A stretch of 64,000 nt of DNA, taken from positions 32,001 to 96,000 of IMG/VR virus record IMGVR_UViG_3300028549_000507. One strand, 5' to 3'. Position 1 is the first letter of the stretch. Every line of letters starts with the position of its first letter. Shown one piece after another: positions 2,804-39,610 of this stretch. The translations under genes were made by a program, and so were the position numbers. Source of the DNA: a virus (Duplodnaviria; Caudoviricetes). A model generated the notes under the pieces. The model searched no databases and had not been told where the DNA came from. It was given only the letters and a program-made list of their open reading frames with translations.

Positions 2804-4135
2804 CTATACAAAAATAAGTTTATTTCCTACTATTATCGGACATTTAGCCCATACTTCACCACTATCATCACCATCATTATTTCTAACAGTAGTACTCTTG
2901 AATAATTTTTCAGGAGTAGTTCCTGGAGTTAGTGATATAGTCGTTAGTTCCTTAGCCAATTTTGCTATAGAATGAGGACTACATTCATCAACTGCAACAG
3001 TTTTATCTATTGTATTATTTGTTAATGCCATAGGTAAATTTAACTCGTTGAAATCTATAAATACTCTTGGTTCCATAGGTTCATAAAAATTGAACTTATA
3101 AGATATGCTTATATCGTCTAATTCATCCAATTTTATTTCTTTAGAATGATTCAATGTATTTAAAGGTATTCCAACCGGATAACATCCTGTCCACTTAGCC
3201 CATCTTATGATTGTCATATTATCATCGGCAAGTTTAAATGAATATATAGATATCGTATAATCGATTACTCTATGAGCTAGATATAAATACTTTGGCCAAT
3301 AATATCCTTTTGATACGTCATGGATATATTTTACCCAAGTTAAATGTTTAAGGAATATTGGAGATAATGTTGTGTCATAGAATGTAGCAGTCAATTCCCC
3401 AGCACTATCATAACCATCTGCACCAGCGGCATATGATAATGTGTGTCCTGAAAAGTCGCTATATTCCTCATATGAGTCCAACATAATATCCTTGGCACCA
3501 GTCAAATCTTTACATGCATTGGACATCAATGGATCGAATGCTGATTTGGTTTTAAATTTTTCATCAAGTTTTACTTTGAAATTATCTGATCCAACCGCAC
3601 TATTACTTACTCCCGGATATTGTAAGTACTCGCCAACAAATTGTCCGATTTCACTACTTAAAAGCCAAGTCAAATATCCATTTTGCGTAACGTCATCTTT
3701 AAGTAAATTTAAATCAGGTCTTGTGAAAAACACATAAGAATTTCCGGGACGAGCCGGATCCAAATTTAATATATCCATAGATTTTCTAAAGTGCGTACCG
3801 TATGCTTGTAATGGATTTGAAAAGTTAATACCAATACTATCCAGAGCTTGAGCATACAATTCTTCAATGTCAAGGATCAGAGCTTTATCATCACTAAAAT
3901 TCCCACCAACACCTTTCCCACCATTCGCAGTGGAAAACATATTAGATTCCCCAGCGGGTTTAGATGTGGTTAAACTCTCCAAAACTGTATGAGCGATACT
4001 TGGGTCAGTAGGTAAGCTCGTACTGGCGCCTTTATTTTCCTCATATTTTAAAGGATCTATTTCCATAATGTAAGTCGCCCTCTCGAAATTAACATTAATT
4101 AGTGTTGTTATATCAATATAATGTTGTCGCTCCAA
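2804..4135 (-). CDS. Tail-tube-fold virion protein (T4 gp19/gp54-like)
   Basis: YVFFTRPDLN and WAKWTGCYPVGIP motifs typical of jumbo-phage tube-like proteins; adjacent to the baseplate gene. Confidence 0.6.
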   Translation of the reverse strand: MERQHYIDITTLINVNFERATYIMEIDPLKYEENKGASTSLPTDPSIAHTVLESLTTSKPAGESNMFSTANGGKGVGGNFSDDKALILDIEELYAQALDSIGINFSNPLQAYGTHFRKSMDILNLDPARPGNSYVFFTRPDLNLLKDDVTQNGYLTWLLSSEIGQFVGEYLQYPGVSNSAVGSDNFKVKLDEKFKTKSAFDPLMSNACKDLTGAKDIMLDSYEEYSDFSGHTLSYAAGADGYDSAGELTATFYDTTLSPIFLKHLTWVKYIHDVSKGYYWPKYLYLAHRVIDYTISIYSFKLADDNMTIIRWAKWTGCYPVGIPLNTLNHSKEIKLDELDDISISYKFNFYEPMEPRVFIDFNELNLPMALTNNTIDKTVAVDECSPHSIAKLAKELTTISLTPGTTPEKLFKSTTVRNNDGDDSGEVWAKCPIIVGNKLIFV

Positions 4136-4148: not shown

Positions 4149-4160
4149 AACACTATAATG
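4149..4160 (+). promoter_or_regulatory. Late-type promoter AACA-N6-TG
   Basis: AACACTATAATG upstream of the head cluster. Confidence 0.65.
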
Positions 4161-6624: not shown

Positions 6625-6636
6625 AACATATTAATG
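6625..6636 (+). promoter_or_regulatory. Late-type promoter AACA-N6-TG
   Basis: AACATATTAATG. Confidence 0.65.
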
Positions 6637-9234: not shown

Positions 9235-9246
9235 AACATCTTATTG
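9235..9246 (+). promoter_or_regulatory. Late-type promoter AACA-N6-TG
   Basis: AACATCTTATTG. Confidence 0.6.
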
Positions 9247-13728: not shown

Positions 13729-13740
13729 CATTAAGATGTT
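13729..13740 (-). promoter_or_regulatory. Late-type promoter AACA-N6-TG
   Basis: AACATCTTAATG on the minus strand; divergent partner AACATATTAATA at 13768-13779 (+). Confidence 0.65.
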
Positions 13741-13804
13741 TCGTCGAGATTAATATATTACCCAGTCAACATATTAATATATAACTTAAAGTAGGAGTTT
13801 AGAA

Positions 13805-16467: not shown

Positions 16468-16495
16468 TAAAATTCTCCCACTTAAATGTTCAAGT

Positions 16496-17563: not shown

Positions 17564-17618
17564 TTTAAACTCCTTTTAAAAAATATAATGGTTGGGACAT
17601 TCCCAACCATTATACATT

Positions 17619-19241
17619 CTAGTTTATAATCTTTAAATAAAACTCTAAGATCTCATTAATAAGCTCTTCATCAGAGTGTTTTATGATATTACCGTTACGT
17701 GGATCTCCGAAATTATTATATACAAACTTATCGTTTGCAAGATGAATTACATCGTCTCGAATAAAGTCTTTCTTTTCAAAGAAACCTCTAATAAAACGAT
17801 ATTTTCCATCAACAATCTCAGTATATCTAGGATCTTCATAAAACTTTCTATCAGAGTTCTTTCCGCCCCATCGCTGTGTAAACGAATGTCCGACACAATT
17901 GGATGCGACATAATCTGCAAGAATATTAAACCCTTGTTTTCTCAAATACTTAATAGTAAGTATGAGTAATCTGACATAGTTATGTCTATTATTATCATAC
18001 ATATTATCAATCCCACCATAACTGTGTGAGAAGATGTTGAATATAGTTTTAGATTGCATATTATGAAGATATAGATTATTCATATAGAATAGATATTCTT
18101 CATACGAATCAATGAATACCCCATATCGAGCAGATATCTTACCAATCGTATCATCAGCAGTATATCGTCTAACGATTTTTAGCAATTCATCTGGACGAGC
18201 TATCTTATTCTCATGAATCTCTATCTCAGTCACAATGTTATCATCGCTACCGGTATTCTTATAATCGTCCCCAAACCCGTTCAAATGGTTATACCCATTA
18301 TCAGTTTGAGGCGTCCAAGTTGCCGATGTATTTTTGATAACTCCTAGAAGATATGATGCAGCTTTATCGACTGGTTCAATTACCGCAATAATCTTTGCAA
18401 GAACCTTAGAAAAGTTATTCTCAATCTCAGTATCAGTTGTAATACCTTTGATTGCCATATTGTCATACATCTTCTTGTGAACTTTTACAGAGTTCTTAAC
18501 GATCTTAGTCGTATATCTGTGTAGTTTATCAAGGATATCATTATCATATTTAAGAGTCAAAGACATTCTTTTAAACAACGCAATAGCCAGATCGTGGAAG
18601 AATTCTTTAGAATCAACTTCTCGGATCATGATATTACAATAATGAGTACAGATAGGAACGATAAGATTTGCGGCATATTTAACATGACACATACCTTTAA
18701 TATCCATATCGGTAAATGTCATATCCATGGAATGTTTATGTTTGGTTGAATCGATTAATTCATCCATACTTCCCATATATACTGAATCTACGTAATTGAA
18801 AATTATCTTAATAATGTTATCTGTTACAACATTCATAAGCTCATTTATAAATACAGGATAGGGGATCTTCGTAAGTTCTCCACCATCATCAATATCCATT
18901 TTCATAGATATTATATTAAGGATAAACTCTTCAGTGTCTCTTAATCCTTCATTATATTTGCGTTTAATCTTGTCGCCAGTATCAATATGAACAAATTGTT
19001 CTGTAAATGAATGGTTTAGAATTCGATTATTATTATCGACTATCAGAGCATTATATCTTTTGAATATACGTTTTGCCGATAGCGATACTCTGAAAGTATC
19101 ATATGGCTTAGCGAAATCGAAGAGTTTACTTACATCAATTGTAATATCTCCCGGACTATCTGTAGATAGTTTGAAGAAGTGCTTACCTTTGAAAGGCTTT
19201 TGCACAAACTCATACTTCTCTTTCTCAATATCTTCGCTCAT
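17619..19241 (-). CDS. Non-virion RNAP promoter-specificity (sigma-like) subunit, AR9 gp226 / phiKZ gp68-like
   Basis: Colinear resemblance to AR9 gp226 as I recall it (ITIDVSKLF, LIVPICTHY, ILDKLHRY, AASYLLGVIK, C-terminal EELINEILEFYL). Start moved to ATG 19241; early-type motif variant at 19269-19284. Needs HHpred confirmation. Confidence 0.7.
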   Translation of the reverse strand: MSEDIEKEKYEFVQKPFKGKHFFKLSTDSPGDITIDVSKLFDFAKPYDTFRVSLSAKRIFKRYNALIVDNNNRILNHSFTEQFVHIDTGDKIKRKYNEGLRDTEEFILNIISMKMDIDDGGELTKIPYPVFINELMNVVTDNIIKIIFNYVDSVYMGSMDELIDSTKHKHSMDMTFTDMDIKGMCHVKYAANLIVPICTHYCNIMIREVDSKEFFHDLAIALFKRMSLTLKYDNDILDKLHRYTTKIVKNSVKVHKKMYDNMAIKGITTDTEIENNFSKVLAKIIAVIEPVDKAASYLLGVIKNTSATWTPQTDNGYNHLNGFGDDYKNTGSDDNIVTEIEIHENKIARPDELLKIVRRYTADDTIGKISARYGVFIDSYEEYLFYMNNLYLHNMQSKTIFNIFSHSYGGIDNMYDNNRHNYVRLLILTIKYLRKQGFNILADYVASNCVGHSFTQRWGGKNSDRKFYEDPRYTEIVDGKYRFIRGFFEKKDFIRDDVIHLANDKFVYNNFGDPRNGNIIKHSDEELINEILEFYLKIIN

Positions 19242-19334
19242 ACGTTCCCCAAAGTTAAAGTTATTCAAGTAGTAAATATATACTCATATACTCACTTTAA
19301 GATATTGCGGGAATTGTTTAATTCCCGCAAATAA

Positions 19335-21722: not shown

Positions 21723-21845
21723 TTTACTCTCCGAATGTTACATTTATTTGTTGAGTGAATTATAATTTTTAATCCTATGGCGTTATCTAATATATATTTA
21801 AACGATATCATTGAAAAAAAAAAGAAAGGCTTGCACCCTTTCTTT

Positions 21846-24028: not shown

Positions 24029-24080
24029 AGAATCTCTCCAAATGAATAAAATTAATTAGATACACATTATAATGTTTACT

Positions 24081-24692
24081 TTAAGGATTGTATATAGGAT
24101 TTTCATCTATTTTGAATTTCCATGTACCATCCAAAAACCCAGTAGGACACTCTCCCGAATTAGTTCTATACTCTCTAACATTAGGACTATTTATAGTTGC
24201 ACTACGTTCATCCAAGGTATACTCGCTAATTTTAAATGATCGAGCATTGGTATTTATTAGAAATGGTTCATTTCCTACAATTTGTTTATAATCGTTACAA
24301 TTACACCATCTTCTAAACTCGGCAAAAGGTTCCTGAGTTTTTGAATGTGACAATATTTTGAAGAATCGTTCATTTCCAGATTCGAATGTTATAATGTCCG
24401 CATCAAGATGAGGAATTATATATAACTCGACATAAGAATTTGTTGTGTAATCATTAATAATACCTGTTAGATTTTCCATTATATCACTTATAGCACGTTC
24501 GATTCTTTCGGTATCAAATCGATTACAACATATAGAAGAAAATCTGACAAGTATTTCATTATGATTATTGTGCGTATAACTAGCTAATGGACAACTTCCC
24601 ACACCACCACTGATATAGGATATAACTTTATTCGCCGGAGTCTTTCCGGGATATTTAATTTCCAATACAATACTTTTAACTTGTAAAAACAT
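24081..24692 (-). CDS. Hypothetical protein
   Basis: 203-aa ORF in a packed operon. Confidence 0.55.
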   Translation of the reverse strand: MFLQVKSIVLEIKYPGKTPANKVISYISGGVGSCPLASYTHNNHNEILVRFSSICCNRFDTERIERAISDIMENLTGIINDYTTNSYVELYIIPHLDADIITFESGNERFFKILSHSKTQEPFAEFRRWCNCNDYKQIVGNEPFLINTNARSFKISEYTLDERSATINSPNVREYRTNSGECPTGFLDGTWKFKIDENPIYNP

Positions 24693-24695
24693 AAA

Positions 24696-25277
24696 CTAAT
24701 CTCCTCTGTAAGTATCTTCCCATGTTTCTTCTAGAAATGAATCCGCGTCAATAAGCTCAAACTCTGCTTCTTCAATATCATCGTCTTCGTAGCCACTACC
24801 ATCTTCATCTTCACAATCGTCATAACCATCTGTTCCACTACGAAGTTCATCGAGATAGAATCTAATATTAGAATTATTAAACACCTCTCCAGGACCAACG
24901 TAATGTAATTGATTTTTCAACGTATTTATTGAGAAGAATGGTTTGACTTTAATACCATCAATACTATTGAATGATGATACAGCTACCAAATACACCGAAT
25001 CGATTGCGATTTCATCCTCAATCCAATTCAACATTATTGGGCAATTTGTAAACATGATATAGTCTTCTAATTTAGAATCTTCAATGATACTATCCATGTA
25101 TTTTTCAACATCCCAATACTCCAAATCTCTCGTAGGATCCCATAACACCATAGCATTTGGATTATAATCCATACCAATAGAATTCATTAGAGGGATTACT
25201 TCTAACGGGTTTCTATTTAAAAGAATGTCATGTAAATATTTTTTTTCTTCATAAGTTCCTAGTATAATTCTAATCAT
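24696..25277 (-). CDS. Hypothetical protein with acidic C-terminus
   Basis: 193-aa ORF. Confidence 0.55.
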   Translation of the reverse strand: MIRIILGTYEEKKYLHDILLNRNPLEVIPLMNSIGMDYNPNAMVLWDPTRDLEYWDVEKYMDSIIEDSKLEDYIMFTNCPIMLNWIEDEIAIDSVYLVAVSSFNSIDGIKVKPFFSINTLKNQLHYVGPGEVFNNSNIRFYLDELRSGTDGYDDCEDEDGSGYEDDDIEEAEFELIDADSFLEETWEDTYRGD

Positions 25278-25767
25278 GAGATGTCTTCAATTCTTTTGAT
25301 GTAATTAACGGATTTTCATTAAAATGAAATTTAAGCCATTCTAGACATGCGCTATTATATTCCTCTGACTTCTCGGGTTCCCAAGATACTCTGAAAGTTC
25401 TTGAGATATCCTCGATAAAGTATCGAATATGTACATTATCAGGATGACCGAATATTTCAGTAATCATATCATCGAAAGATCTCAGATTTCTGACATGGAA
25501 AAGTATATATGCATCATGACTTCCTTCTTGATTAGATGGTATACCATCTTCATTGGTCGAAGGAATTGAACCTTGACATGATGCTATTGGGGTAACGTCC
25601 AATGAATAATTCATACTTATTACCATGATGATTGCGGATATACCAGAATCTACACTATAAGATATATCATCTGTTTTATGTGCATTGAAATCTGTTCTAT
25701 TCGTATACATCAATACCATCCAATTCTTTTTGAATACGTTTACATCCCTCAATATCTCCAGCAACAA
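25270..25767 (-). CDS. Hypothetical protein
   Basis: 165-aa ORF. Confidence 0.5.
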   Translation of the reverse strand: MLLEILRDVNVFKKNWMVLMYTNRTDFNAHKTDDISYSVDSGISAIIMVISMNYSLDVTPIASCQGSIPSTNEDGIPSNQEGSHDAYILFHVRNLRSFDDMITEIFGHPDNVHIRYFIEDISRTFRVSWEPEKSEEYNSACLEWLKFHFNENPLITSKELKTSHD

Positions 25768-25942
25768 GGCATATTTTATGACCCTGAATTAACGCGATTC
25801 TTCTAGACTGGTTGACCATTTTTTCAGGAGCATCGTATAAGTGTAAGCCTCGGTTATTCATTTTCGCAAAGATTGTAGCGAAATGTCTTCTCTGTCTCTC
25901 CATAAAGATTTCTAATCTCTCTTTTCTACTTCTCGGTCTCAT
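25697..25942 (-). CDS. Hypothetical protein
   Basis: 81-aa ORF with GGAG SD. Confidence 0.5.
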   Translation of the reverse strand: MRPRSRKERLEIFMERQRRHFATIFAKMNNRGLHLYDAPEKMVNQSRRIALIQGHKICLVAGDIEGCKRIQKELDGIDVYE

Positions 25943-26258
25943 TTGGAACTCCTTCGGAAATATGAAAACTCTTATTAACTTTTATATACAAATTCGTATC
26001 AGCACACGCAACAGCTTCTTTCCAGTATATAATACTGTCAGTAACGCCTTCATCGATCCATCTAGTACATTCTTCTTCTGTAATTGGTTCTTTCCAATTA
26101 GCAACGCAAGATTGATTGACCGTACATTCTTTTAAATGAAACCACGGTTTATTTTCATTGAAGTATATCCCGTTATAACTCCCGCTGATAGTGGGAATGT
26201 CATCAAGACATACAAACATTTCTTCTTCGATTTTCAACATCCGAACAACACGTTTCAT
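25926..26258 (-). CDS. Hypothetical protein
   Basis: 110-aa ORF behind a promoter variant at 26290-26305. Confidence 0.55.
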   Translation of the reverse strand: MKRVVRMLKIEEEMFVCLDDIPTISGSYNGIYFNENKPWFHLKECTVNQSCVANWKEPITEEECTRWIDEGVTDSIIYWKEAVACADTNLYIKVNKSFHISEGVPNETEK

Positions 26259-26363
26259 AACATCCGACCTTGTTTAAATTGTTATTAACCAAATTATAAA
26301 TATATAATTTAATAAGATACTTGAAAAAAAAATGAGGTAGTAAATACCACCCCATTAATACGA

Positions 26364-26930
26364 TCAATCTGAGGAAGTTGAGGTAATGGATATAGACTCA
26401 TTATCGATAGCCATTATGGTTAACGTTTCGCCAATAGAACCATTCCACATCTGACCACTGATAGTAACCTTGCCAACTTCACCAAAACACAACTTAGCAA
26501 TGTGCATGTCTGATACAAAGTGTCTTAACTCTAATTTTCTTCGCTCCTTACTAATGATCAACCCATCAGGTTCCTCACAGATAAGTCTTGCCCCATTTTC
26601 AAATCCAATGATCACAGCAAACCGAAAGAATCTAGTAGCATCTGAATTATGTTTGATGAGATCAGTCGTTCTGGCTCTTGTAGTTGGATCATATGCTATA
26701 TATACATTTCTTATAAATCCGGTATCTTGGATAAGTACATATGTATTATCCTCAAGGTGGTCGATAAATTCAATATTATCATCAGTTCCAGTGATGATAT
26801 GTCTTAGTATTTGTACAGATTTCAATCCTCGAAAATCCGTCTCATTAAAATTAACAAACCCAACATTAAGTTCTTCCGAACTACACTTCTGCATATCCAT
26901 AATAACTCCTCTTATAATATTATTACACAT
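26364..26930 (-). CDS. Hypothetical protein in a solo early cassette
   Basis: Promoter motif at 26952; terminator hairpin at about 26330-26356. Confidence 0.6.
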   Translation of the reverse strand: MCNNIIRGVIMDMQKCSSEELNVGFVNFNETDFRGLKSVQILRHIITGTDDNIEFIDHLEDNTYVLIQDTGFIRNVYIAYDPTTRARTTDLIKHNSDATRFFRFAVIIGFENGARLICEEPDGLIISKERRKLELRHFVSDMHIAKLCFGEVGKVTISGQMWNGSIGETLTIMAIDNESISITSTSSD

Positions 26931-27018
26931 TTGACATTCGTCCTATGTGTTCACTATTAAATATATAATTTAATATGAATTTAAAAAATGGGGTAAATAA
27001 ATACCCCATTAATATAAT

Positions 27019-28068
27019 CTAAAAATCATCCCAACCCGGAAGAGCAGAGCTCATATTATATGAAGTAACTGTAGTCTCGAAGAAGTTGGCTTTAGATGAA
27101 CCTTCTCCTTCCAAGTCTGCAATTCTTTCAAGATGCATATATGGATTCTTAGAGAACTTAGGATCAGTAAATAATTTACTTATACCAATAAATTCCAAAC
27201 GTTCATTAGTAATAAATTTTGTATACTGCTCAATAGAATCATCTGATATTCCGAGTACATTCTTTATAATATGTGTAGACCATTTAATCTCTTGTTCTAC
27301 CGCCATTTTAAACATTTCATTAATCTCTATATCATGAATAGATTCCCATACTTCCGGAGATTCTTTCTTGATTTCATTGATAATATGTTTAAATAATACA
27401 ACATGGAGGAGTTCATCTCTCTGGATAAGTTTGATGATATTAGCTGTACCATTCATCAAATTTCTAGAAGTTAATGTATAGAAGAAATTAAATCCATTGT
27501 AAAAATATATAGATTCAAGAAGATAGTTAGCAATAATAGTCTTCATAAAGTTCTTATTACTAGGATCATCCTCAAAATCTTGATATATAGAAGCTATGTA
27601 TTTATTTCTTTCTAGAAGAACCTCATCCTCACGCCACTTCTCATAAAGAGTATCTCTTGCAGGTTTATCTATAATACTCTCGATAATATATGCATAAGAC
27701 TTCGAATGAATAGATTCAAAGAAAGTTTGCACCGTTAGAGTTAGAGATACTTCTGGAGCTGTAATATACTTGGCTATATTAGGTAAGTTTGTAACCTGAA
27801 TACTATCTAAGAATACTAAGAAAGACAGTATCCCATCATAAGCAACCTTTTCATCAGGAGTTAATTTACGGTAATCTCGTACATCATCTGTAAGAGATAC
27901 CTTCTCCGGAATCCAGAAGTTATTCATCATATTAGTATAAAGGTTGTTTGCCCACTGATATTTAACATTGTTAAGGTTAAATAGATTAGTAGTATTACCA
28001 TCCAAAATACTTCTTTCAGAAAGTTCTTCAGTTCCGGTTTCATTAAATATAAGTTTAGTCTTCATCAT
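27019..28068 (-). CDS. nrdB: Class I ribonucleotide reductase beta subunit
   Basis: NFWIPE, FLD, ESIHSKSY, ESIYFYNGF, IQRDELLH, NFFE. Confidence 0.95.
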   Translation of the reverse strand: MMKTKLIFNETGTEELSERSILDGNTTNLFNLNNVKYQWANNLYTNMMNNFWIPEKVSLTDDVRDYRKLTPDEKVAYDGILSFLVFLDSIQVTNLPNIAKYITAPEVSLTLTVQTFFESIHSKSYAYIIESIIDKPARDTLYEKWREDEVLLERNKYIASIYQDFEDDPSNKNFMKTIIANYLLESIYFYNGFNFFYTLTSRNLMNGTANIIKLIQRDELLHVVLFKHIINEIKKESPEVWESIHDIEINEMFKMAVEQEIKWSTHIIKNVLGISDDSIEQYTKFITNERLEFIGISKLFTDPKFSKNPYMHLERIADLEGEGSSKANFFETTVTSYNMSSALPGWDDF

Positions 28069-28073
28069 ATCTC

Positions 28074-30332
28074 CTAATTAGCACAGCTTACACATTCTTC
28101 TTTAGACTTTTCAGAACCATCTTTTTGAATAGTTCTTGTATAATAAATAGCTTTACACTCGGATTTCCAAGCGAATATAATATTTTCAAAGATATCCTTA
28201 GCGGTGATATCTGAATTGAGATTGTACACAAGCTCCATACTAATTCCAGTATCGATCCATTTCTGAATAATAGATGTAATACGGATCACATCTCTTTGAT
28301 CTGTAAACTTATTCTCATTATAGAACCATCGTTTAGATCTAATATAAGGTGGGAATACAGGTACATTTCCATTAGAATTCTTTTCGATATGGAACTTAGA
28401 GTATGTAGGAAGAACACTTGCTGTACATCCGATGAGATTAGATGTAGATGTATTTGGAGCAATTGCTGTACATTGTGAGTTTCTTATTCCAAACACTTTA
28501 AGTTTATTGAATAATACTTTCCATTTTTCATACATACTTGAGTTAGAGTATTCATCAATAGTTTTATTGAGGATCTTACCTTTATAGAATTCTGAATTCT
28601 CATATGCTTCAAATGTTCCACGTTCTTTAGCCAAATCTATAGATGAATCATATGTATAATATGCAAATTTTTCAAATAGATTATCTACAAATTCTCCAGA
28701 TTCAGCATATCGTTTATCATTTATAGCTAACAAATCATGCAAACCCATATAACCGATACCGATTACTCTATATAGTCTATTGTGATTATCTGCATCCATT
28801 ACTGGTGGAGTTGTAATTTCTATAGCATTATCAAGTATTCTAACTGCCGTTCTATGGATTTGTTTAATTTCATCTTCATCCGTAATATCTATTTCTGCAA
28901 GATTTATAGAAACTAGGTTACATATATGGGTTTCCCCTATACGTCTAATCTCGGTCGATACTGCAGAATCATGCTCAGATTCCATTATTGAAGATGGTCT
29001 AAAGTTAGAGAATGATTCTACACAGAGATTAGCAGAACCAATATAACCACATTCTTTATTTGGATTATATTTGTTAGCGGTATCTTTGAAGAATATATAT
29101 GGCATACCGGTCTCAATTTGAGTTTTCATGATATGCTTCATAATATCTCTTGCTTGATGAACTCTTTTGAATTTGATCAATTCACTATGTTCGATAGTAA
29201 GATACCAATCTTCAAATGCTTTACCATGAAGTTCGAAGATATTTATACCAAATACCTTTTTAATTTCATATGGATCGAATGTTGTCCAAGGACCACTTTC
29301 TTCAACACGTCGCATGAATATGTCCGATATAACTACTTGTGGGAATACATCAAATGACTTTCTTCTAAGATCACCATTTTCAGTCTGCATTTCCAAGAAT
29401 TCAATAATATCATTGTGCCAAATATCCAATGCGACAGTAGCTGCACCAGCTCTATGACCATTCTGATCTACTGCAATCATTGTATCATTTACAATCTTAA
29501 TCCAAGGAAGAACTCCATTGGATCCTCCGAGTTGTCCTCTAAGATAAGATCCATTTGATCTAATTCTAGATACATTAACACCTACACCACCACCTGTAGC
29601 AGATATATTAGAAATATCTTTTACTGTTTGGAATATGCTGTCTAGGTTATCATCCATTGCTACGATGAAGCAAGATGATAGATTTCCATTAGGACGTCTA
29701 AGGTTTGTTAGGATAGGCGTTGCAAGAGATATCAATTTCCTAGTGATCATACTATAGAATTGGATTGTTACACTGTTGCGAACTTCCGGTTTCTCATTCA
29801 TTGCGAGGTACATTGATACTACCATAAACATTGTTTGAGGGAGTTCATATCCTATAAGATAACGGTTTTTAAGAATGTTTAAACCGGCGTATTCAAACAA
29901 TGCATCATTATCAAAATCCATAGAATTGAAGATTTCTCTAATAGATTCTTCATTATATCTTTCCAATATAACTTTATCATATTGATTCTCTTCAACCATT
30001 TTATTAACAAATGAAACAAACCCATCTACAGTATATTGGTCGAATTTAAGGTTTCGTTTGGCTTCTTTTGTAACTTCATGAAGGAGCATTCTAGCTGCAA
30101 AACTTGAGTAATCTAGGTTATTCAAATCACATTTAGTTACAGCATAGTGAATGATTGATTTCTGAATCTCACTGGTAGTGACAACTTCTGATTTAGAGAA
30201 TGCATCAATGTGGGCTTCTACTTCAAGGTGATCTATAGTGAGTCCTACGGAACAATCTCGTACAACTTTTCTAATTTTTTCAATATCAATTTTACTTTCA
30301 TGACCATGACGGTCAACTACGGTTACGCTCAT
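28074..30332 (-). CDS. nrdA: Class I ribonucleotide reductase alpha subunit
   Basis: ATPILTN, SSCF, GGGVG, SANLCVE, IGIGYMGL, IAPNTSTS, C-terminal CVSC. Confidence 0.97.
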   Translation of the reverse strand: MSVTVVDRHGHESKIDIEKIRKVVRDCSVGLTIDHLEVEAHIDAFSKSEVVTTSEIQKSIIHYAVTKCDLNNLDYSSFAARMLLHEVTKEAKRNLKFDQYTVDGFVSFVNKMVEENQYDKVILERYNEESIREIFNSMDFDNDALFEYAGLNILKNRYLIGYELPQTMFMVVSMYLAMNEKPEVRNSVTIQFYSMITRKLISLATPILTNLRRPNGNLSSCFIVAMDDNLDSIFQTVKDISNISATGGGVGVNVSRIRSNGSYLRGQLGGSNGVLPWIKIVNDTMIAVDQNGHRAGAATVALDIWHNDIIEFLEMQTENGDLRRKSFDVFPQVVISDIFMRRVEESGPWTTFDPYEIKKVFGINIFELHGKAFEDWYLTIEHSELIKFKRVHQARDIMKHIMKTQIETGMPYIFFKDTANKYNPNKECGYIGSANLCVESFSNFRPSSIMESEHDSAVSTEIRRIGETHICNLVSINLAEIDITDEDEIKQIHRTAVRILDNAIEITTPPVMDADNHNRLYRVIGIGYMGLHDLLAINDKRYAESGEFVDNLFEKFAYYTYDSSIDLAKERGTFEAYENSEFYKGKILNKTIDEYSNSSMYEKWKVLFNKLKVFGIRNSQCTAIAPNTSTSNLIGCTASVLPTYSKFHIEKNSNGNVPVFPPYIRSKRWFYNENKFTDQRDVIRITSIIQKWIDTGISMELVYNLNSDITAKDIFENIIFAWKSECKAIYYTRTIQKDGSEKSKEECVSCAN

Positions 30333-30458
30333 TGGTTTCTCCTAAAGATAAATACTCGCTACTAATAGACTGTTTAATCGATTATATTTTTTAAATTTAT
30401 AACGATAGATGATATGTTCAAAAAAAAAAGAAGGAGAGCGCAATGCTCCCCTTTCTTT

Positions 30459-30692
30459 TTATTCTGAAGCCTTTCTAAGGGCACGGCGAAGTGCCGCTCC
30501 CTTATACGCTACGGAGTCATAGATATTCACCCACACGTCGAAATCTCCTTCCGGATCAATAGCGTGTCCGAAGATCCACGCATCTCCATTCATAATGAAC
30601 GAAGTCTGAATAGCCTCAACCCCCTGCACAGATACTTCTGTGATAAGGGTTCTAATTTCTTTGTCGCCGCTGTTTGTTGTAACTTTAATCAT
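30459..30692 (-). CDS. Hypothetical protein in a solo early cassette
   Basis: Start moved to ATG 30692 (AAGGA SD); GC-richer than flanks; promoter at 30777. Confidence 0.65.
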   Translation of the reverse strand: MIKVTTNSGDKEIRTLITEVSVQGVEAIQTSFIMNGDAWIFGHAIDPEGDFDVWVNIYDSVAYKGAALRRALRKASE

Positions 30693-30843
30693 AATAGATC
30701 CTTTTCTTGGCACACCTGTACCATAGTAAAAATATAGTTTGTTAGAGTATATGGTATAGTCTTTCTATCCATTCTCCACTATTAAATATACACATCAATA
30801 ATCGTTTATTACAAAAAGAGAGGGATTGCTCCCTCTCCTTATA

Positions 30844-33800
30844 TTATCCGCAAGAAAGAGGTTTTCTAATAATAGGTCTATCACTAGAATTTGAAGAATA
30901 TGTAACTCTTCTAGGAGCTTCCCATTCACGTCGTTCTTTGTTCCAATTTTCAACTTTAGTTGGGAATCCAACAACACGAGTGATACGGGATACAATCTCT
31001 GCACCACACATATTACAACTAGTTGTATCGAAATCTCCAATAGTATTATGACCATTTTCACATTCACACGTTACAGGATTAGCCGAGAAGTGTTCACATC
31101 CCACTTCAACCGCATCATTTACAAGATTTTCATTTTGTAATGGAGTTAAAAGTGATCCAATTTGGAAGTGAACAATACCACCACCGGTAAGCATCTGTTG
31201 ATACTTTCCGTCAGTAGCCATACGTTCATAGATAGTAGCATCTTCCCACAATGGAACGAATTGATTACTATATAGAACATTAGTTACAACATCACTACCA
31301 AATATAGCCCTATCAGCTTTAGGGAATTTAGCAGCCATAGACTCACCGGGAATCTCTTCAATATTACCAAAGATCTCATATTTAGAAGAGAACTCGTCTA
31401 CAGAACTCTCAATGATTTCTAAAGCAATCCCGATGAAATCAAGATCTTCATCATTACCAAATTTATGAACAAGAGTTGTAGCCATCTCAGAAGAAGCAAT
31501 TATACCAATAGTAGAGAATAATGCATTATGATTGATCCAACCATTAGAAATAAACTTCTGAAGCTTCTTATCTGCTGTAAATTTGATAAGTTCTTTATGA
31601 GCCTTAAGAACTTTACATGCGTCTTCTACTCTGTTTCTAAGTACTTCTTTGAAGTCTTTTACAGATTTAGATTGCAATGCAACTCTATTAAGATTAATAG
31701 GAACTACACGATGCGAACCAATACCAATACCTTCTCCACCAAATGAGTTTACAGATTTAGCCTGTTCTCTCATTAGAGATTTGAGTAGGTCATAATCGTT
31801 GGAAAACCGACAGTTGTGAGTTATAATTCCATTAGGAAGAGTAAAGTATGGTTCATCTTTATTTTTCATTTCAAAACAGTATACATATTCTTTTTCATAA
31901 TCTTTGATTTTCTCAACTGATTTGATTTTAAAGTAAGTATTGCCATTGAATTTTCTATAAATATGACCATATCCTCGCTTCTGTTTTATAGAATAGAATC
32001 TCACAGAATACACTGGGTATTTTGGAATAATAGTTTCAACCCCACGAACAGGTCTAATTTGACCAACTCTATTATCAATATTTACAACAGAAGTCATACC
32101 TAATGAAGTTATCAATACCTCAAGATCTAATGATAATTGTTCACTCGTAGTATATATTCTATTTCTATTTCCACCATCGGTAATATAAAGACCCTCAAGT
32201 ATACCTTTTCTAAATTTTACAGATTGTTTTATAGCATCAAGATTTAGAGATTTTGAATGAGCTTTCCCTAAATTTGTCCAAGTTTGTATAAGATTTATAA
32301 TGCGTTTATCACTAGTACTAACCGATACAACATTGTTTGCTATGGGATTTATATTCCAAATAGGATTTGTCAAATCTACAATCTTACCAAAGATCCCAAC
32401 CTTTTCAGAATTCATACTTAAGATAAGTCTATTGTAGTTTGAAATATCGCCATTCTTACATTCGTGGATACTACTAGAGATATTTCCATCTCCTAAATAT
32501 GCCCCAACAATAATACCGTCTTCATATGAGATATCCAACTCACTATTAGATCCGAGTACAGATGAGTTCAACATTAGATAATTTGATCTAGATAGTTTAT
32601 CAGTTCGAATATCTCCAGTCATTGTTGGAAATAAATGATCCTCAGTAGCAATCATTACCTTATTGTTGGTAGTTTCGATTCTATACATAGATTTATTATC
32701 TCTAGGAATCTTAACTAGTTCACCATTACACCAAGAACCATCGTGGAAGATTTTATATTTACCAATATTAGAGTTATATAACTCTTCAAATGAGAGTCTC
32801 ATAACTCCATCTTTTTTACTATTGATCAAGCAATCCTCACCACCATCGAAGCAGCACATCGACACTCTATTGCCAGTACTTACATTGATATTGTATCTAT
32901 GCATTTCTCGTACAGCAACTTTTTTAAGAAAGTCTTGTTCAACTACACGGAATTTACCAGTCTCATCATCAAATACTTTAGTCATATTTATTGTAGATAC
33001 TGGGAATGTGATCTGTCGATTATTCTTTGTTTGGTCACCTTTTTCAAAGATATCCATATAGATATTTTGAAGTTCAACAATCAAATCTGCGATATAATTA
33101 ACTTTTTCATCACCATGTAAATAATCGGTATCCATGAACATGTGTTCCATAGTACCATATATCCCTTTAATTTTAGTTCTATCAAAGATAGAAATATTGG
33201 TAAAAGGAGATTCTGCACCATTTCTAGATGTGTGATTTACTGAGTGAATAATTGTCTGGAATAGATTTTCAAGAGTCTTTCTAACTATATAATTAGTTTT
33301 AATATCCTCAAGATTAACTCTACCTATAGATGTATTTACACCATCTGCGTACATAATAAGATGGGCAATATCAAAGAATAGAGTTGAGATAGCAATAGCA
33401 CCAGCCAAACTATTACTCATCTCATGAACGGTTTCTAAAACCTGTTGGATATAACTATCAACACGTTTTGCAGGAGCCGAATGAAGAACTCCCCAAGGTC
33501 TACCCTCGATAATCAATTTACTAAAGTCAGCAGCATAACAATATACAGAAAGAATTTGTGTACTATCGCTAACGGTAAGATCGAAAGAATACAGTAATCC
33601 AGATAAGCGTTTAGCTTCTTCTTTACCATAGATTTCTTTCATAGCTCTATATAGATAGTCATATCCTGTAATCTTTTGGAAGCTAGCTTGAGCATCTGCA
33701 AAGATCTGTTTGATAGTCTTCTCTGTTTTATTAGAGTTATCATCTACCATACCGGCAATAGTATCTTGTTTAAACTGTGCTGACATAGACATTTCAACAT

Positions 33801-33984
33801 TTTTTACAAAGTCGAAATTCGCAGGAGCCATTCCATGAATTTTCATAAGTTCATGAGCAACATTATCAATATGATCTTCAGGAATAATTCCGGAGTGTCT
33901 CAGGTTATCCTTAAGAGTATTTGAAATATTCTTCTGCAGTCTACTTGTTTTCGACGAGTAGTCGAATTCTAAGGTCTCATTCAT
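30844..33984 (-). CDS. nrdD: Anaerobic (class III) ribonucleotide reductase, intein-containing
   Basis: ESPFTN, SMC|CRF active-site motif split by an intein, EEIPGES, C-terminal CxxC pairs, glycyl-radical motif RVVGF. Confidence 0.95.
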   Translation of the reverse strand: MNETLEFDYSSKTSRLQKNISNTLKDNLRHSGIIPEDHIDNVAHELMKIHGMAPANFDFVKNVEMSMSAQFKQDTIAGMVDDNSNKTEKTIKQIFADAQASFQKITGYDYLYRAMKEIYGKEEAKRLSGLLYSFDLTVSDSTQILSVYCYAADFSKLIIEGRPWGVLHSAPAKRVDSYIQQVLETVHEMSNSLAGAIAISTLFFDIAHLIMYADGVNTSIGRVNLEDIKTNYIVRKTLENLFQTIIHSVNHTSRNGAESPFTNISIFDRTKIKGIYGTMEHMFMDTDYLHGDEKVNYIADLIVELQNIYMDIFEKGDQTKNNRQITFPVSTINMTKVFDDETGKFRVVEQDFLKKVAVREMHRYNINVSTGNRVSMCCFDGGEDCLINSKKDGVMRLSFEELYNSNIGKYKIFHDGSWCNGELVKIPRDNKSMYRIETTNNKVMIATEDHLFPTMTGDIRTDKLSRSNYLMLNSSVLGSNSELDISYEDGIIVGAYLGDGNISSSIHECKNGDISNYNRLILSMNSEKVGIFGKIVDLTNPIWNINPIANNVVSVSTSDKRIINLIQTWTNLGKAHSKSLNLDAIKQSVKFRKGILEGLYITDGGNRNRIYTTSEQLSLDLEVLITSLGMTSVVNIDNRVGQIRPVRGVETIIPKYPVYSVRFYSIKQKRGYGHIYRKFNGNTYFKIKSVEKIKDYEKEYVYCFEMKNKDEPYFTLPNGIITHNCRFSNDYDLLKSLMREQAKSVNSFGGEGIGIGSHRVVPINLNRVALQSKSVKDFKEVLRNRVEDACKVLKAHKELIKFTADKKLQKFISNGWINHNALFSTIGIIASSEMATTLVHKFGNDEDLDFIGIALEIIESSVDEFSSKYEIFGNIEEIPGESMAAKFPKADRAIFGSDVVTNVLYSNQFVPLWEDATIYERMATDGKYQQMLTGGGIVHFQIGSLLTPLQNENLVNDAVEVGCEHFSANPVTCECENGHNTIGDFDTTSCNMCGAEIVSRITRVVGFPTKVENWNKERREWEAPRRVTYSSNSSDRPIIRKPLSCG
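31813..32853 (-). mobile_element. Intein (347 aa) with LAGLIDADG homing endonuclease
   Basis: Starts CFDGGE, ends VYCFEM...GIITHN followed by extein C; endonuclease blocks GAYLGDG and GLYITDG. Confidence 0.95.
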
Positions 33985-34036
33985 TTGTACGCCTTTCTCC
34001 AATATTACCACATTTGAAAATATTAGAAATAGAAAG

Positions 34037-34546
34037 TTATTTGTATTTAAAAACGCCGTCGATACTTAATAGATTGAACTCTTTATCATAAATCTTTTGA
34101 TTTTTAGATGCGAGTATCAAACTATCGTCTGTGAGTTTTGATTTTTGGATCTTTTTCCTATCAAATACACCAGACTTTAAGAATGTGAATGGGATACTAT
34201 TATCTCGAGCTACATTGATATCATATCCGGTATAGATTATTAAATTATAACCGGTATCCAATAGTTTTGTAGATAATAGTTTGGTTAACTCAATATTATT
34301 CTTGAATAGAGGATCTCCTCCAACAAATGATACATTTTTAGTGCGAGATCTTCTGCACCGTGATATTATTTCTAAGTAAGCTCTATCTGAGAACTCTTCA
34401 ATATCATCTACAACTTCGGCAGGAATTGCCAATGAAGGGTTGTGACAGTCTTTACAACCTATGTCACAACCCTGAAAGAATACAGATACACACATACAAC
34501 TACTATCTGGGTAATCTATAAAATTACTTTCAATATAAGTTATCAT
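34037..34546 (-). CDS. nrdG: Class III RNR activase (radical SAM)
   Basis: FQGCDIGCKDCHN (CxxxCxxC), GGDP, YTGY; adjacent to nrdD. Confidence 0.93.
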   Translation of the reverse strand: MITYIESNFIDYPDSSCMCVSVFFQGCDIGCKDCHNPSLAIPAEVVDDIEEFSDRAYLEIISRCRRSRTKNVSFVGGDPLFKNNIELTKLLSTKLLDTGYNLIIYTGYDINVARDNSIPFTFLKSGVFDRKKIQKSKLTDDSLILASKNQKIYDKEFNLLSIDGVFKYK

Positions 34547-35013
34547 TGTACACCTGTATGACCAAATCCACCATCACCACGAACTGTTTCACTAAGGGTT
34601 TCTGCTACAACATAGCGGGCATGAGAAACTTTTGCAAGCACCAATTGTGCAATGCGTTCTCCTCTGCGTATTGCGAAGTCGACCTTAGAGTGGTTTATTA
34701 ATATAACCTTAACTTCTCCACGATAGTCGGAATCAATTGTTCCGGGAGTATTCAATACAGTTACTCCGAATTTGGCAGCAAGTCCACTTCTAGGTCTAAC
34801 CTGAATCTCTAATCCATGAGGAATCTCGAAAGAAAGGCCTGTTGGGACTTCCATAATACTTCCTGGCATTAGAATTGTTTCTTCTTCAATACAAGCACAA
34901 ATATCTGAACCAGATGCACCTTCGCTCATTAGTCTTGGCAATGAGATATCATCTCCAAAGTTTTCAAGTTTAACAGTATTAATTGCAACTTGACTAGAAC
35001 ATCCACAACCCAT
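34543..35013 (-). CDS. dut: Trimeric dUTPase
   Basis: ASGSDI, PRSGLA, GTIDSDYRGE, RIAQ, RGDGGFGHTG; start moved to ATG 35013 behind GGAGGA; late-type promoter at 35043-35054. Confidence 0.96.
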   Translation of the reverse strand: MGCGCSSQVAINTVKLENFGDDISLPRLMSEGASGSDICACIEEETILMPGSIMEVPTGLSFEIPHGLEIQVRPRSGLAAKFGVTVLNTPGTIDSDYRGEVKVILINHSKVDFAIRRGERIAQLVLAKVSHARYVVAETLSETVRGDGGFGHTGVQ

Positions 35014-35130
35014 ACGATCCTCCAATAAAAATAATAATCCGTCAATCAAATGTTTGACTTCTATTTATTTTTTATTGAAAAAAAAAAGTACACATCCGAA
35101 ATTGTGTACAAAAATCATTACACTTATATG

Positions 35131-35190
35131 TTAAAATGTTATGACTAAATCTTTTAAGAAGTTTCTCAAAACTTCGATACACTCTCTCAC
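35131..35190 (-). CDS. 19-aa peptide MRECIEVLRNFLKDLVITF
   Basis: GTG start behind AGGGGA; only ORF between the promoter at 35224 and the terminator at 35079-35109. Confidence 0.45.
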   Translation of the reverse strand: MRECIEVLRNFLKDLVITF

Positions 35191-35296
35191 GATATCCCCT
35201 AGATATTTATTAGTATTGTATTACACTAATAAATATATACATCAAAAAGAAGTCAAAAAATCAATAGTGTAGGGATTTCTCCCTACACTAATTACT

Positions 35297-35551
35297 CTAA
35301 ACGATATCATCTCTATTAAACATCTTTTCAAAACTAAATCGTTTATTTCCACTAAAATGGATATCGACAAATTCGGATAATTCTCTAGACCACAACGATC
35401 CCACAGGATGATCTCCACCATCATCTAGTTGTAAGTAGTTTACAATATCCTTTTTACAATCATTAGCCCATCTAGATATACTTATTACAAGGTATCTCTT
35501 ACCTTTCCAATGTTTATAAATACCACCTACTATAACTCTTTCATTAGGCAT
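35297..35551 (-). CDS. DUF1653-like protein
   Basis: GGIYKHWKGKRYLV ... V-x-Y ... LWSRELSEF ... RF. Confidence 0.75.
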   Translation of the reverse strand: MPNERVIVGGIYKHWKGKRYLVISISRWANDCKKDIVNYLQLDDGGDHPVGSLWSRELSEFVDIHFSGNKRFSFEKMFNRDDIV

Positions 35552-35578
35552 ATTATACCACTTCTTACTATGTATTAT

Positions 35579-35965
35579 TTATACTTCTGTAATATATGTG
35601 ACGAACTTTGAAGTTATCGGACCATCATGTATTAATGATAAAAATTCCAACCATTCATCAACATAAACTCCATCAGAATTTCTATTTATACACATTCTCC
35701 AATTAACTCTTCTAACTCCGTCAATTCTAGATGTAGAATTAGTTTCATCAAAGTTTAAACATCTGACATTATAAAAATCAACACGACCAATTACAATTCC
35801 ATAGCAATGTTTAACAGATATAGATATAATTGTATCTTTATCTGTTCTAAGTGTAGTGTTTCCTGTTTCATCAATTATGAGTAAGCTCTCATAAATTTTA
35901 GATGCAGTCGGAAGTTTATCTTTAACATTGTAAACGTAATTATCTATTTTAATCTCGTTAGACAT
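35579..35965 (-). CDS. Hypothetical protein
   Basis: 128-aa ORF with GGAG SD. Confidence 0.55.
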   Translation of the reverse strand: MSNEIKIDNYVYNVKDKLPTASKIYESLLIIDETGNTTLRTDKDTIISISVKHCYGIVIGRVDFYNVRCLNFDETNSTSRIDGVRRVNWRMCINRNSDGVYVDEWLEFLSLIHDGPITSKFVTYITEV

Positions 35966-36133
35966 ATTGGACTCCTGATGACCTTGCCACGCATGATATT
36001 AATTTAGAATTTAGTTGAATTACTTTCTTCTGCTCATCGATAATCATTTTAGTAAGATCTTCTTTACTATATTCAATATAACCGTGCTCATACTGAAAAT
36101 GATTAAGAACTCCATCTATAACTTTATCTTGCA

Positions 36134-36367
36134 TCATTCAACCTTATTCAATGGGTCCAAATACTTTACAGTTTCAAGTATTATTGCATCTCTAGCGAGT
36201 ATATCGATTTTACCATCATTATAGTCTTTATAAATCTTCACAATTGAATCTTCACAATGAGGGATATATTTTGTAGTTTTACCACTCGAAATATTAGCAG
36301 AAACCATCAGAAGTACTATTATACTTAATATAAGAACTACTGATAAAACTTCTTTAATATTTTCCAC
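36134..36367 (-). CDS. Small membrane-anchored protein
   Basis: N-terminal hydrophobic helix. Confidence 0.5.
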   Translation of the reverse strand: MENIKEVLSVVLILSIIVLLMVSANISSGKTTKYIPHCEDSIVKIYKDYNDGKIDILARDAIILETVKYLDPLNKVE

Positions 36368-36368
36368 T

Positions 36369-36770
36369 TTAAACCTCTCCGTCTGCTATTGTTTTCAATA
36401 TTCTATATACAACATCCTCCGGAGTATGTCCATCATACTCGTGGATACTAGTCTCATATGAAGGAATTTTAAATACTTCCCAATACTTTATATTGTAATG
36501 GTTAGATATACATCCTGAAGGTAGCTTAGCGCTAACTATAAACATATCATCTTTCCCAAAACAAGCTTCACCATCATGATGCTTCATACTTTTATGAACT
36601 TCATACATACCTTCTGATGCCCATTTATTGAATATCAATGCATTGTAGATAGTTCTAAACACATACAATTCTTCAAAGGTATGATAACCATCATTAACTT
36701 TAGAAGCATCTTCGACCGTTGCGATTTCAATCTTCTCTTTTCCATCATCCTTGTAGAATACAGATTCCAT
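36369..36770 (-). CDS. Conserved phage protein (DGYHTFEELY...YDGH, WDGH-type)
   Basis: DGYHTFEELY, HHDG, ISNHY, YDGHT motifs; start moved to ATG 36770. Confidence 0.6.
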   Translation of the reverse strand: MESVFYKDDGKEKIEIATVEDASKVNDGYHTFEELYVFRTIYNALIFNKWASEGMYEVHKSMKHHDGEACFGKDDMFIVSAKLPSGCISNHYNIKYWEVFKIPSYETSIHEYDGHTPEDVVYRILKTIADGEV

Positions 36771-36846
36771 AATAGCTCCTAATACTGTTAAAATTAGTTT
36801 TATAAGTTTGGATATTATAACTTTAAATATAGAAAACATGTAGCCC

Positions 36847-37050
36847 TCATCGTTTATTTGATAAATGTTTTGTAATTTTCTTACCATAACTACCATACAG
36901 TTTATAGGATTGTATACCTATTTTACAACTGTCGTATGAATTTGATTCACAATTTTTATTATCACAATAGTTAATAGGTACAACTTTTGAGAATGCACTC
37001 GGATTAGAGTATTTATTAACTTTCCTCCATTGAAATTTAGACTTCACCAT
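36847..37050 (-). CDS. Hypothetical protein
   Basis: 67-aa ORF with Cys residues. Confidence 0.4.
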   Translation of the reverse strand: MVKSKFQWRKVNKYSNPSAFSKVVPINYCDNKNCESNSYDSCKIGIQSYKLYGSYGKKITKHLSNKR

Positions 37051-37167
37051 AATGTAAACCCACCCAGTTTTAAATTACATTTGGTTGTTGGATCGTTATT
37101 TAATATATAAACTATATTAGTTATTGAAAAAAAAAGTAGGGGGAGAATTTCTCCCCCAGTATTATGA

Positions 37168-37221
37168 TTAATCTTCATCGCACAATGGCGGAAGAGTAAC
37201 CCAAGTATTTGGATGCAACAT
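37168..37221 (-). CDS. 17-aa peptide MLHPNTWVTLPPLCDED
   Basis: Perfect AAGGAGG 5 nt before ATG; between the promoter at 37320 and the terminator at 37127-37157. Confidence 0.5.
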   Translation of the reverse strand: MLHPNTWVTLPPLCDED

Positions 37222-37422
37222 AGCATCCTCCTTTTCAATATGTCCACTTCCCTTAAATCAGGGGTCAATACATTGATAGACTTTCAATGTATTCAGATGA
37301 TCAATATTGTATATTTCATCACTATTAAATATATAATCTATATGTACGGTTATTACAAAAATAACAATCATTAAACAATTTAATGTGGATATTTAACCAA
37401 AATTTATTAAAAGGCGTTTTAC

Positions 37423-38899: not shown

Positions 38900-38910
38900 C
38901 ACTATTATAT

Positions 38911-39567: not shown

Positions 39568-39610
39568 AATACTATAAATAGTGGTGAGTGTAAACTCACC
39601 ACTATTATTA

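Follow-up and report, generated by a model that had tools for sequence, protein, structure and literature searches.

The non-virion RNA polymerase (nvRNAP) of the jumbo phage AR9 is the textbook case of an enzyme that reads its promoters in the template strand and that depends on uracil for doing so. Its late promoters conform to the consensus 5'-A(-11)ACA-N6-T-A/G(+1) (PMC7598289; see also Lavysh 2017, PMC5312081, and Sokolova 2017, PMC5449584). In the promoter-bound enzyme the uracil at -10 is wedged between I207 of the sigma-like subunit gp226 and R363 of the beta-N subunit, V206 of gp226 excludes the methyl group of thymine, with the mutation V206G allowing T to be accepted; Y210 stacks on the guanine at -9, to which F261 and Y263 form bonds, and the N-terminal domain of gp226 also binds an AACA-like stretch of the non-template strand (PMC9209446). 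Phage phiKZ, whose subunit gp68 offers a second point of comparison, has promoters devoid of a -10-like element, and its motif T(-3)ATG(+1) is read in the non-template strand by GP123, the beta-like subunit (PMC12809450). Here we analyze a window of 64,000 nucleotides (nt), namely bases 32001-96000 of a 200,251-bp IMG/VR virus record (G000) of an uncultured phage from microbial-mat metagenomes, which codes for a homolog of gp226 in a genome that also bears AACA-type promoters and enzymes of thymine supply. The record is ~72% complete by the CheckV estimate; coordinates below are those of the window unless the record is named. The sequencing runs listed for the region are DNA runs from microbial mats and biofilms, with no RNA run among them. 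Our search of the literature turned up no account of AR9-type promoters or subunits in a thymine phage.

Identification of an end-to-end homolog of gp226

The gene in question lies on the minus strand at 17619..19241, inside an open frame verified at 17619..19268. Translation of the gene probably begins with the ATG at 19241, which is preceded by a GGGG ribosome-binding site (RBS), the stop codon occupies 17619-17621, and the resulting product of 540 amino acids (aa) agrees with the database form P0002. Searches started from this protein recovered no match in the PDB (phmmer), in PHROGs and Pfam, or among 50,697 phage records (tblastn), and a profile of 18 close relatives run against the PDB likewise missed gp226. 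As pairwise searches find nothing, the homology to gp226 became apparent only with a profile of the wider family, profile alignment by hhalign and a fold search.

The family gathered by exhaustive phmmer searches comprises at least 106 representatives of clusters formed at 50% identity, most of them about 500 aa long. A profile built from 75 of these (A2) matched AR9 gp226 (7s01_A; residues 10-461 of 464) with an E-value of 6.4e-82, phiKZ gp68 trailing by a wide margin (E 0.19); as the identity to gp226 does not exceed 34% for any A2 member, this match is not self-recognition. When the close family (A1) alone was aligned by hhalign to the single gp226 sequence, a probability of 94.6% and an E-value of 7e-8 were obtained over 435 aligned columns, at an identity of ~17-21% between the 540-aa protein and gp226. 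An AlphaFold2 model of the protein, with a predicted local distance difference test score (pLDDT) of 73, finds its best Foldseek match in AR9 gp226 (E 1e-11), and VIA-align superposes residues 18-538 of the model on residues 3-464 of 7s01_A with a Z-score of 22.8 over 423 residues. The C-terminal domain by itself scores Z 13.9 at a root-mean-square deviation (rmsd) of 3.9 A over 172 residues; gp68 reaches Z ~13 through its C-terminal domain (164-170 residues, rmsd 3.4-4.1 A), and the best-scoring unrelated chain is at Z 5.0.

The protein is an end-to-end homolog of AR9 gp226, in its N- and C-terminal domains alike. An earlier note on this stretch, made from the sequence alone, had likened the open reading frame (ORF) to gp226 from end to end and had named a profile and structure comparison as the check; the A2 profile, hhalign and the model superposition all bear that likeness out, and a lack of homology to gp226 or gp68, which would have counted against it, was not what we found. 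The likeness to gp226 (PDB 7S01/7UM0/7UM1) thus takes in fold, profile homology and size (540 versus 464 aa), together with the gene neighborhood and an early-type promoter upstream. With phiKZ gp68 (PDB 7OGP/8QUE/9RJS) the protein shares the fold of the C-terminal domain, and the two phages further resemble each other in a thymine-type genome, a probable one in G000, and in G as the preferred start base. By homology, the 540-aa protein is predicted to bind the nvRNAP core and to be required for promoter-specific initiation.

The core polymerase and the phylogenetic position of the phage

All four core subunits of the AR9 nvRNAP have counterparts in G000 (homologs of g105, g089, g270 and g154), such that, as in AR9, four split core subunits coexist with AACA-N6-T-purine promoters. 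The gene for the beta'-C subunit, the homolog of g154, falls within the window at 51971..54082 on the minus strand (blastp E 9e-32 to AR9 127805-129700). The beta-N, beta-C and beta'-N genes lie outside it, at record positions 152727-154244, 124287-126335 and 136565-138352, respectively. The neighbors of the gp226-like gene are homologs of AR9 g212-g214, g218, g227 and NrdE/F (g222-223), all of which flank g226 in AR9. In its two-polymerase strategy, with early and late promoter types, G000 resembles the uracil-DNA jumbo phages at large (PBS1/PBS2/AR9, phiR1-37 and S6), which are also its nearest cultured relatives, with an identity of 26-32% in the beta-C subunit. The cultured phages with a detectable gene of the gp226 family all belong to the group with proven or reported deoxyuridine (dU) in their DNA.

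In a beta-C tree computed with IQ-TREE and rooted on two phiKZ-type phages, G000 groups with a metagenomic relative, G001 (support 99/99), and this pair is the sister group of a 100/100 clade that holds the eight metagenomic AR9-type genomes without exception, along with AR9, S6 and phiR1-37. G000 therefore belongs to the AR9 side of the tree, as sister to the dU clade and not nested within it. A search of IMG/VR for related loci carrying the intermediate gp226-family subgroup A5 retrieved none. The Pfam chimallin model PF25677 found no match in G000 or in any of the related AR9-type genomes.

A late-type promoter with the AR9 architecture

The earlier note had also listed 15 intergenic occurrences of AACA-N6-T(A/G) in the window, and every one of the 15 fits the pattern on the strand given, each ~15-45 nt away from the RBS and start codon that follow it. 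By bare count the motif is unremarkable: AACA-N6-TG occurs 31 times in the window against 37 +/- 6 in shuffled sequence. Across the 200-kb record, however, 39 of its 87 sites are intergenic, in 5.3% of the DNA, which amounts to a density 14.6-fold that of coding DNA (binomial P ~9e-27). The signal is thus positional. Control patterns (AACA-N5-TG, AACA-N7-TG, ACAA-N6-TG, AAGA-N6-TG and AATA-N6-TG) give intergenic/coding ratios of 0.0-0.6. Within the coding DNA of the record there are 48 copies of AACA-N6-TG, compared to 147 with the N5 and 81 with the N7 spacing, a scarcity that suggests selection against late promoters internal to genes. Orientation points in the same direction, as 44 of the 53 fully intergenic AACA-N6-T[AG] sites are directed at a gene start no more than 120 nt away (median 30 nt).

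For a de novo search of upstream regions we used a home-made expectation-maximization procedure with zero or one occurrence per sequence, trimming the RBS and masking terminators; with AR9 as a positive control it recovered that phage's early and late motifs. Run on G000 without masking, it returned the RBS and then a dominant terminator motif. Once terminators were masked, the best motif was AAACATnTTAnTGTnA, present in ~61 of 86 upstream regions, so that the motif discovery suggested in the earlier note places an AACA-type element on top. The logo of the 44 oriented sites extends the element, with A at -12 in 61%, T at -7 in 73%, T at -4 in 70%, A at -3 in 91% and G at the putative start site, +1, in 82%.

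The same motif is found in G001, where it is 5.4-fold enriched in intergenic DNA. In the proven dU phages AR9, phiR1-37 and S6 it is the AACA-N6-TA form that is enriched between genes, 3.4-6.0-fold, and the TG form is not. Since G000, G001 and the dU phages are all enriched for AACA followed by the 6-nt spacer, this element and its spacing are common to the whole AR9-like lineage; what differs is the start dinucleotide, TG in G000 and G001 versus TA in the dU phages. The G000 motif hence shares with the AR9 late promoter the four-base element, the 6-nt spacer, the T-purine start, the placement ~30 nt before start codons and the intergenic enrichment, and departs from it in its greater strength and length (A at -12, T at -7, T at -4, A at -3) and in its start base (G in 82% of sites versus A in 86% in AR9). 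We also considered a host sigma-70 promoter as the source of the motif and rejected it, there being no -35/-10 geometry. In sum, the evidence supports a motif of AR9 late-promoter architecture whose position, orientation and depletion within genes are promoter-like.

The reading head is remodeled at the sequence level

The segment that corresponds to the 2.1bis helix of gp226 (Y202-Y210), which reads -10U and -9G in AR9, comprises residues 253-261 of the 540-aa protein (K-V-H-K-K-M-Y-D-N), encoded at 18459..18485 on the minus strand. The by-eye alignment in the earlier note, which set SDVVIW of AR9 against VHKKMY, is reproduced by MAFFT, hhalign and hmmalign. By this pairing D204 of gp226 is replaced by H, V206 by K, I207 by M, W208 by Y and Y210 by N. 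The finger (F261/Y263) is not alignable in G000. As regards the partner subunit beta-N, K375 of AR9 aligns with a K, and the 9-residue segment bearing R363 is absent in pairwise alignments, the alignment of this gapped loop being uncertain. The suspicion that the pocket had been remodeled is thus borne out at the sequence level: relative to AR9, the 2.1bis residues are replaced, the finger is not conserved and beta-N appears to lack the R363 loop.

For comparison we used a set of 11 genomes: AR9, phiR1-37, S6 and, from IMG/VR, eight that are 100% complete and carry an AR9-type gp226. The pattern YSD.[V/T/S][I/L/M]W is kept, with a recognizable finger, in all 11 of these dU-clade genomes, and the G000 clade shows K[V/S][H/N]K.[I/M]Y, the segment in G001 being K-S-N-K-K-I-Y-D-R. 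Within the G000 clade the position equivalent to V206 is unconstrained (K, P, Q, V, I, L or R).

As a separate observation, across the wider family (A2) the uncultured members show T, S, A, M, K, G or P at the V206 position, and P0029 has G-G at 206-207. A 2022 analysis, which covered about a dozen GenBank members, reportedly described V206 as 'absolutely conserved'.

Nucleotide metabolism points to thymine

The window encodes an intact deoxyuridine triphosphate (dUTP) diphosphatase (dUTPase) and an intact ThyX, as the earlier note had stated. The dUTPase gene (34543..35013, minus strand; 156 aa, ATG at 35013) specifies a protein that scores 105 bits with Pfam PF00692 and 183 bits with the NCBIfam equivalog NF001862, for which the cut-off is 103, versus 42 bits with the deoxycytidine triphosphate (dCTP) deaminase model, which requires 93; all five motifs of trimeric dUTPases are visible in its sequence. 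The thymidylate synthase (37423..38805, plus strand; 460 aa) is a long form of the ThyX family, with a Pfam Thy1 score of 50.6 bits (cut-off 24.8); an S-x-R-Y motif is seen at residues 113-117 and an RHR motif at 338. Its nearest Atlas clusters are Thy1 proteins of 445-570 aa, one of them fused to a thymidylate kinase. Each of the two genes has an AACA promoter of its own. Both reside in a nucleotide-metabolism island of ~15.6 kb (24029..39610) that further contains a class I ribonucleotide reductase (RNR), an intein-bearing class III RNR and small early cassettes. The possibility that this island stems from a chimeric assembly was considered and set aside, in that its genes use the early and late promoter types of G000 itself and the RNR genes are syntenic with those of AR9.

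The 11 comparison genomes present a different gene complement. None of them has a ThyX or ThyA, and none has a convincing dUTPase, the lone family match being a marginal one of 22.8 bits in G009; a deoxycytidylate (dCMP) deaminase is present in nine of the 11. In the G000 record, ~72% complete as it is, no dCMP deaminase was found, and blastp with the AR9 uracil-DNA glycosylase (UDG) inhibitor (g104), deoxyribonucleotidase (g151) and dCMP deaminase (g221) detected no G000 homolog. A search for a UDG in G000 was equally negative. With a dUTPase and a ThyX present, and with the uracil toolkit of AR9 undetected, the DNA of G000 most likely contains thymine, a conclusion drawn from gene content that sets this phage apart from the uracil-DNA jumbo phages in general and in particular from AR9, whose polymerase has a strict need for U at -11/-10.

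Outside the window, an ORF of 245 aa (G000:C1:178642-179379) is thymidylate-kinase-like at a sub-threshold 24.9 bits (cut-off 27) and might be a deoxynucleoside monophosphate kinase.

A candidate early-type promoter and flanking hairpins at the gp226-like gene

Upstream of the gp226-like gene we detected a candidate early-type promoter, resembling those of virion RNA polymerases, GAGTATATATTTACTACTTG, at 19266..19285 on the minus strand. It fits the first 10 bases of TATATATTTAATAGTG, the second de novo motif of G000, which occurs before small ORFs and is the analogue of the AR9 early promoter. An element similar to GAGTATATATTTACTACTTG also lies upstream of the G001 ortholog, and in AR9 an early promoter is annotated at the corresponding position before g226. 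Inspection of the sequence revealed a terminator-like hairpin after the upstream GyrB-like gene (19307..19328, minus strand), which isolates the gp226-like gene, and a terminator made of a hairpin and a T-run after the gp226-like gene itself (17575..17608, minus strand). The gene is therefore a self-contained unit, with a hairpin upstream, an early-type element of its own, and a hairpin and T-run downstream.

Across the genome, TATATATTTAATAGTG is very uniform, intergenic and situated 20-90 nt before small ORFs; examples on the minus strand of the window are found at 26952, 30777, 35224, 37320, 22192, 22645 and 11250. As it closely resembles the AR9 early (virion-polymerase) promoter ATATATTATAATAnTG, the early as well as the late promoter class seems to be conserved between G000 and AR9.

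A proposed mode of promoter recognition and its alternatives

We propose that the 540-aa protein acts as the sigma-like promoter-specificity subunit of the G000 nvRNAP, being the ortholog of gp226 in a sister lineage. It would probably be made early, from a promoter of the virion-polymerase type, and would thereafter associate with the four split beta/beta' subunits. The holoenzyme so formed would transcribe virion, replication and nucleotide-metabolism genes from ~45-60 promoters of the form A-AACA-T-n-TTA-A-T-G, in which AACA spans -11 to -8 and positions -3, -1 and +1 are A, T and G, respectively. Such an enzyme would have to accept T at template positions -11/-10, where AR9 strictly needs U. 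Acceptance of T fits the replacement of the elements that form the uracil pocket in AR9, namely the 2.1bis helix, the finger and, as far as the pairwise alignments show, the R363 loop of beta-N. We hold it to be reasonably probable that this early-made subunit brings the nvRNAP to AACA-N6-TG promoters of thymine DNA and that its reading head tolerates T, or prefers it, be it on the template or on the non-template strand.

Several points weigh against this proposal. The -11U specificity of AR9 stems from the conformation of the bound DNA itself; if the same consensus is read with T, the binding geometry in G000 must differ from that of AR9. The confidence of the AlphaFold2 model is low (pLDDT 50-58) around the counterpart of 2.1bis. 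The ThyX is divergent, with 31.6 bits against the equivalog model TIGR02170, under the cut-off of 87.9. Moreover, the collinear relative G001 (69% complete) is without the entire nucleotide-metabolism island, a tblastn synteny map showing ~4.5 kb at the syntenic site; as this closest large relative does without dUTPase and ThyX, the island is accessory. Finally, the missing uracil toolkit is weak evidence in a genome that is only ~72% complete.

An alternative that also starts from thymine DNA is that the AACA element is not read by a template-strand pocket at all. Recognition might instead proceed on the non-template strand, or the (A)TG start might be read by the beta lobe in the manner of phiKZ, with the gp226-like protein mainly opening the DNA. 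This would account for the apparent replacement of all three components of the AR9 template-strand pocket, and both halves of the idea have precedents, in the N-terminal domain of gp226 that binds an AACA-like non-template stretch (PMC9209446) and in the non-template reading of T(-3)ATG(+1) by the beta-like subunit of phiKZ (PMC12809450); the preference for G at +1 and T at -1 in G000 resembles the 3' half of TATG. Nevertheless, the element at -11 to -8 in G000, with its exact 6-nt spacing, is shared with the dU clade, for which the simplest reading is a conserved mode of recognition. Furthermore, K375 of beta-N, which bonds -10U in AR9, appears to be kept. On balance we regard this alternative as a serious one, although unlikely.

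More radical departures would place a different base in the DNA. One might posit that uracil, or a mixture of U and T, is still packaged and that the gp226-like subunit reads U, with dUTPase and ThyX serving other ends, such as late action or the host pools. In keeping with this, every cultured member of the gp226 family is a dU phage, and G001 has neither dUTPase nor ThyX. Yet a phage dUTPase would destroy the very dUTP required for the synthesis of dU-DNA; PBS2-type phages, for their part, inhibit the host dUTPase. The G000 enzyme has all five catalytic motifs and scores above the equivalog cut-off, the 11 dU-type genomes have no ThyX or ThyA and only the marginal dUTPase match in G009 (22.8 bits), and the U-reading residues conserved in the dU clade are absent in G000, all of which makes packaged uracil very improbable in our judgment. 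Slightest of all, to our mind, is the chance that some other modified base is involved, by way of post-replicative thymidine modification or another hypermodification to which the diverged reading head is adapted. The genome is incomplete and rich in genes of unknown function, and a neighboring ORF has a faint methyltransferase match in PHROGs (E 0.002). Conversely, no ThyA-type hydroxymethylase was found, ThyX and dUTPase constitute the canonical route to thymidine monophosphate, and no modification genes turned up in the Pfam, NCBIfam and PHROG scans of the window, which were not searches aimed at them.

The proposal of a T-tolerant reading head on an nvRNAP also admits an evolutionary scenario. 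The AACA/TTGT -10-like element and its gp226-type reader may predate uracil DNA, with G000 representing a surviving thymine branch of the AR9-like phages in which the shared consensus would be read with T; the strict U-specificity embodied in V/T/S206, W208, D204, the finger and the R363 loop of beta-N would then have arisen later, along with the switch to dU. We see this scenario as evenly poised between being right and being wrong.

Other features of the window

Late-type sites are spread over the window. Toward its left end, an AACA-N6-TG site on the minus strand (4114..4125) faces the tail-tube gene (2804-4135), and sites of the same form on the plus strand precede the homolog of AR9 g214, a minor virion protein (4149..4160), ORF 6707-7831 (6625..6636) and ORF 9278-11053 (9235..9246). 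ORF 12693-13718 has an AACA-N6-TG site on the minus strand (13729..13740), and the homolog of AR9 g227 (13805-14716) an AACA-N6-TA site on the plus strand (13768..13779). Around the gp226-like gene, minus-strand AACA-N6-TG sites are found before ORF 15349-16467 (16479..16490), the GyrB-like topoisomerase gene at 19335-21722 (21741..21752) and ORF 23117-24028 (24065..24076).

In the nucleotide-metabolism island, the large subunit of the class I RNR is preceded by an AACA-N6-TA site (30363..30374, minus strand). The dUTPase gene has an AACA-N6-TG site immediately before it (35043..35054) and a second one upstream of its unit (35121..35132), both on the minus strand, and ThyX has one on the plus strand (37374..37385); an AACA-N6-TA site (38932..38943, plus strand) leads into the ORF that begins near 38971. 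Farther along, AACA-N6-TG sites on the minus strand lie before ORF 39611-42310 (42335..42346), before a unit of a small ORF and a helicase at 50146-51897 (51900..51911), immediately before the gene for the nvRNAP beta'-C subunit (54111..54122) and before ORF 54075-54389 (54492..54503), and ORF 54554-55249 has an AACA-N6-TA site on the plus strand (54511..54522). The earlier note had placed these promoters mostly before virion, lysis or nucleotide genes; this is correct for the virion and nucleotide genes, whereas no lysis gene was identified downstream of them.

The terminators of G000 are near-identical in ~42 intergenic regions, consisting of GAGGGAnnAnTCCCTC followed by a T-run, and constitute the strongest upstream motif in the de novo search. 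The two ORFs downstream of the gp226-like gene, 15349-16467 and 16496-17563, were considered as paralogs of each other on account of N-termini that looked alike; blastp (E 0.13) did not support this. The class III (anaerobic) RNR gene (30844-34011, minus strand) carries an intein within its 1055-aa NRDD protein, as judged from a Pfam Intein_splicing match. A single ORF of 2796 aa extends over window positions 57901-64000 and beyond (record positions 89901-98291, minus strand); it has weak similarity to a 1925-aa AR9 protein, and no Pfam domain was detected in the part of it that was scanned.

Conclusions

We present a phage lineage, sister to the dU clade, that has the same promoter consensus, spacing and sigma-like subunit as AR9 and is nonetheless equipped for thymine. 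Its existence makes it experimentally addressable whether the U-dependence of the AR9 enzyme is intrinsic to this mode of promoter recognition or a later specialization. The five nvRNAP subunits of AR9 have been co-expressed, and residue swaps could be aimed at the 2.1bis helix and the finger that are replaced in G000.

The gp226 family is far larger than the dozen GenBank members of the 2022 analysis, with more than 100 clusters at 50% identity. With DNA that most likely contains thymine, G000 would also break the reviewed dichotomy between phages with thymine DNA and phiKZ-type promoters, on the one hand, and phages with uracil DNA and AR9-type promoters, on the other. Should the reader indeed predate uracil DNA, G000 would be nature's equivalent of the engineered V206G enzyme and would give direct access to the way in which a polymerase comes to discriminate between U and T in evolution.

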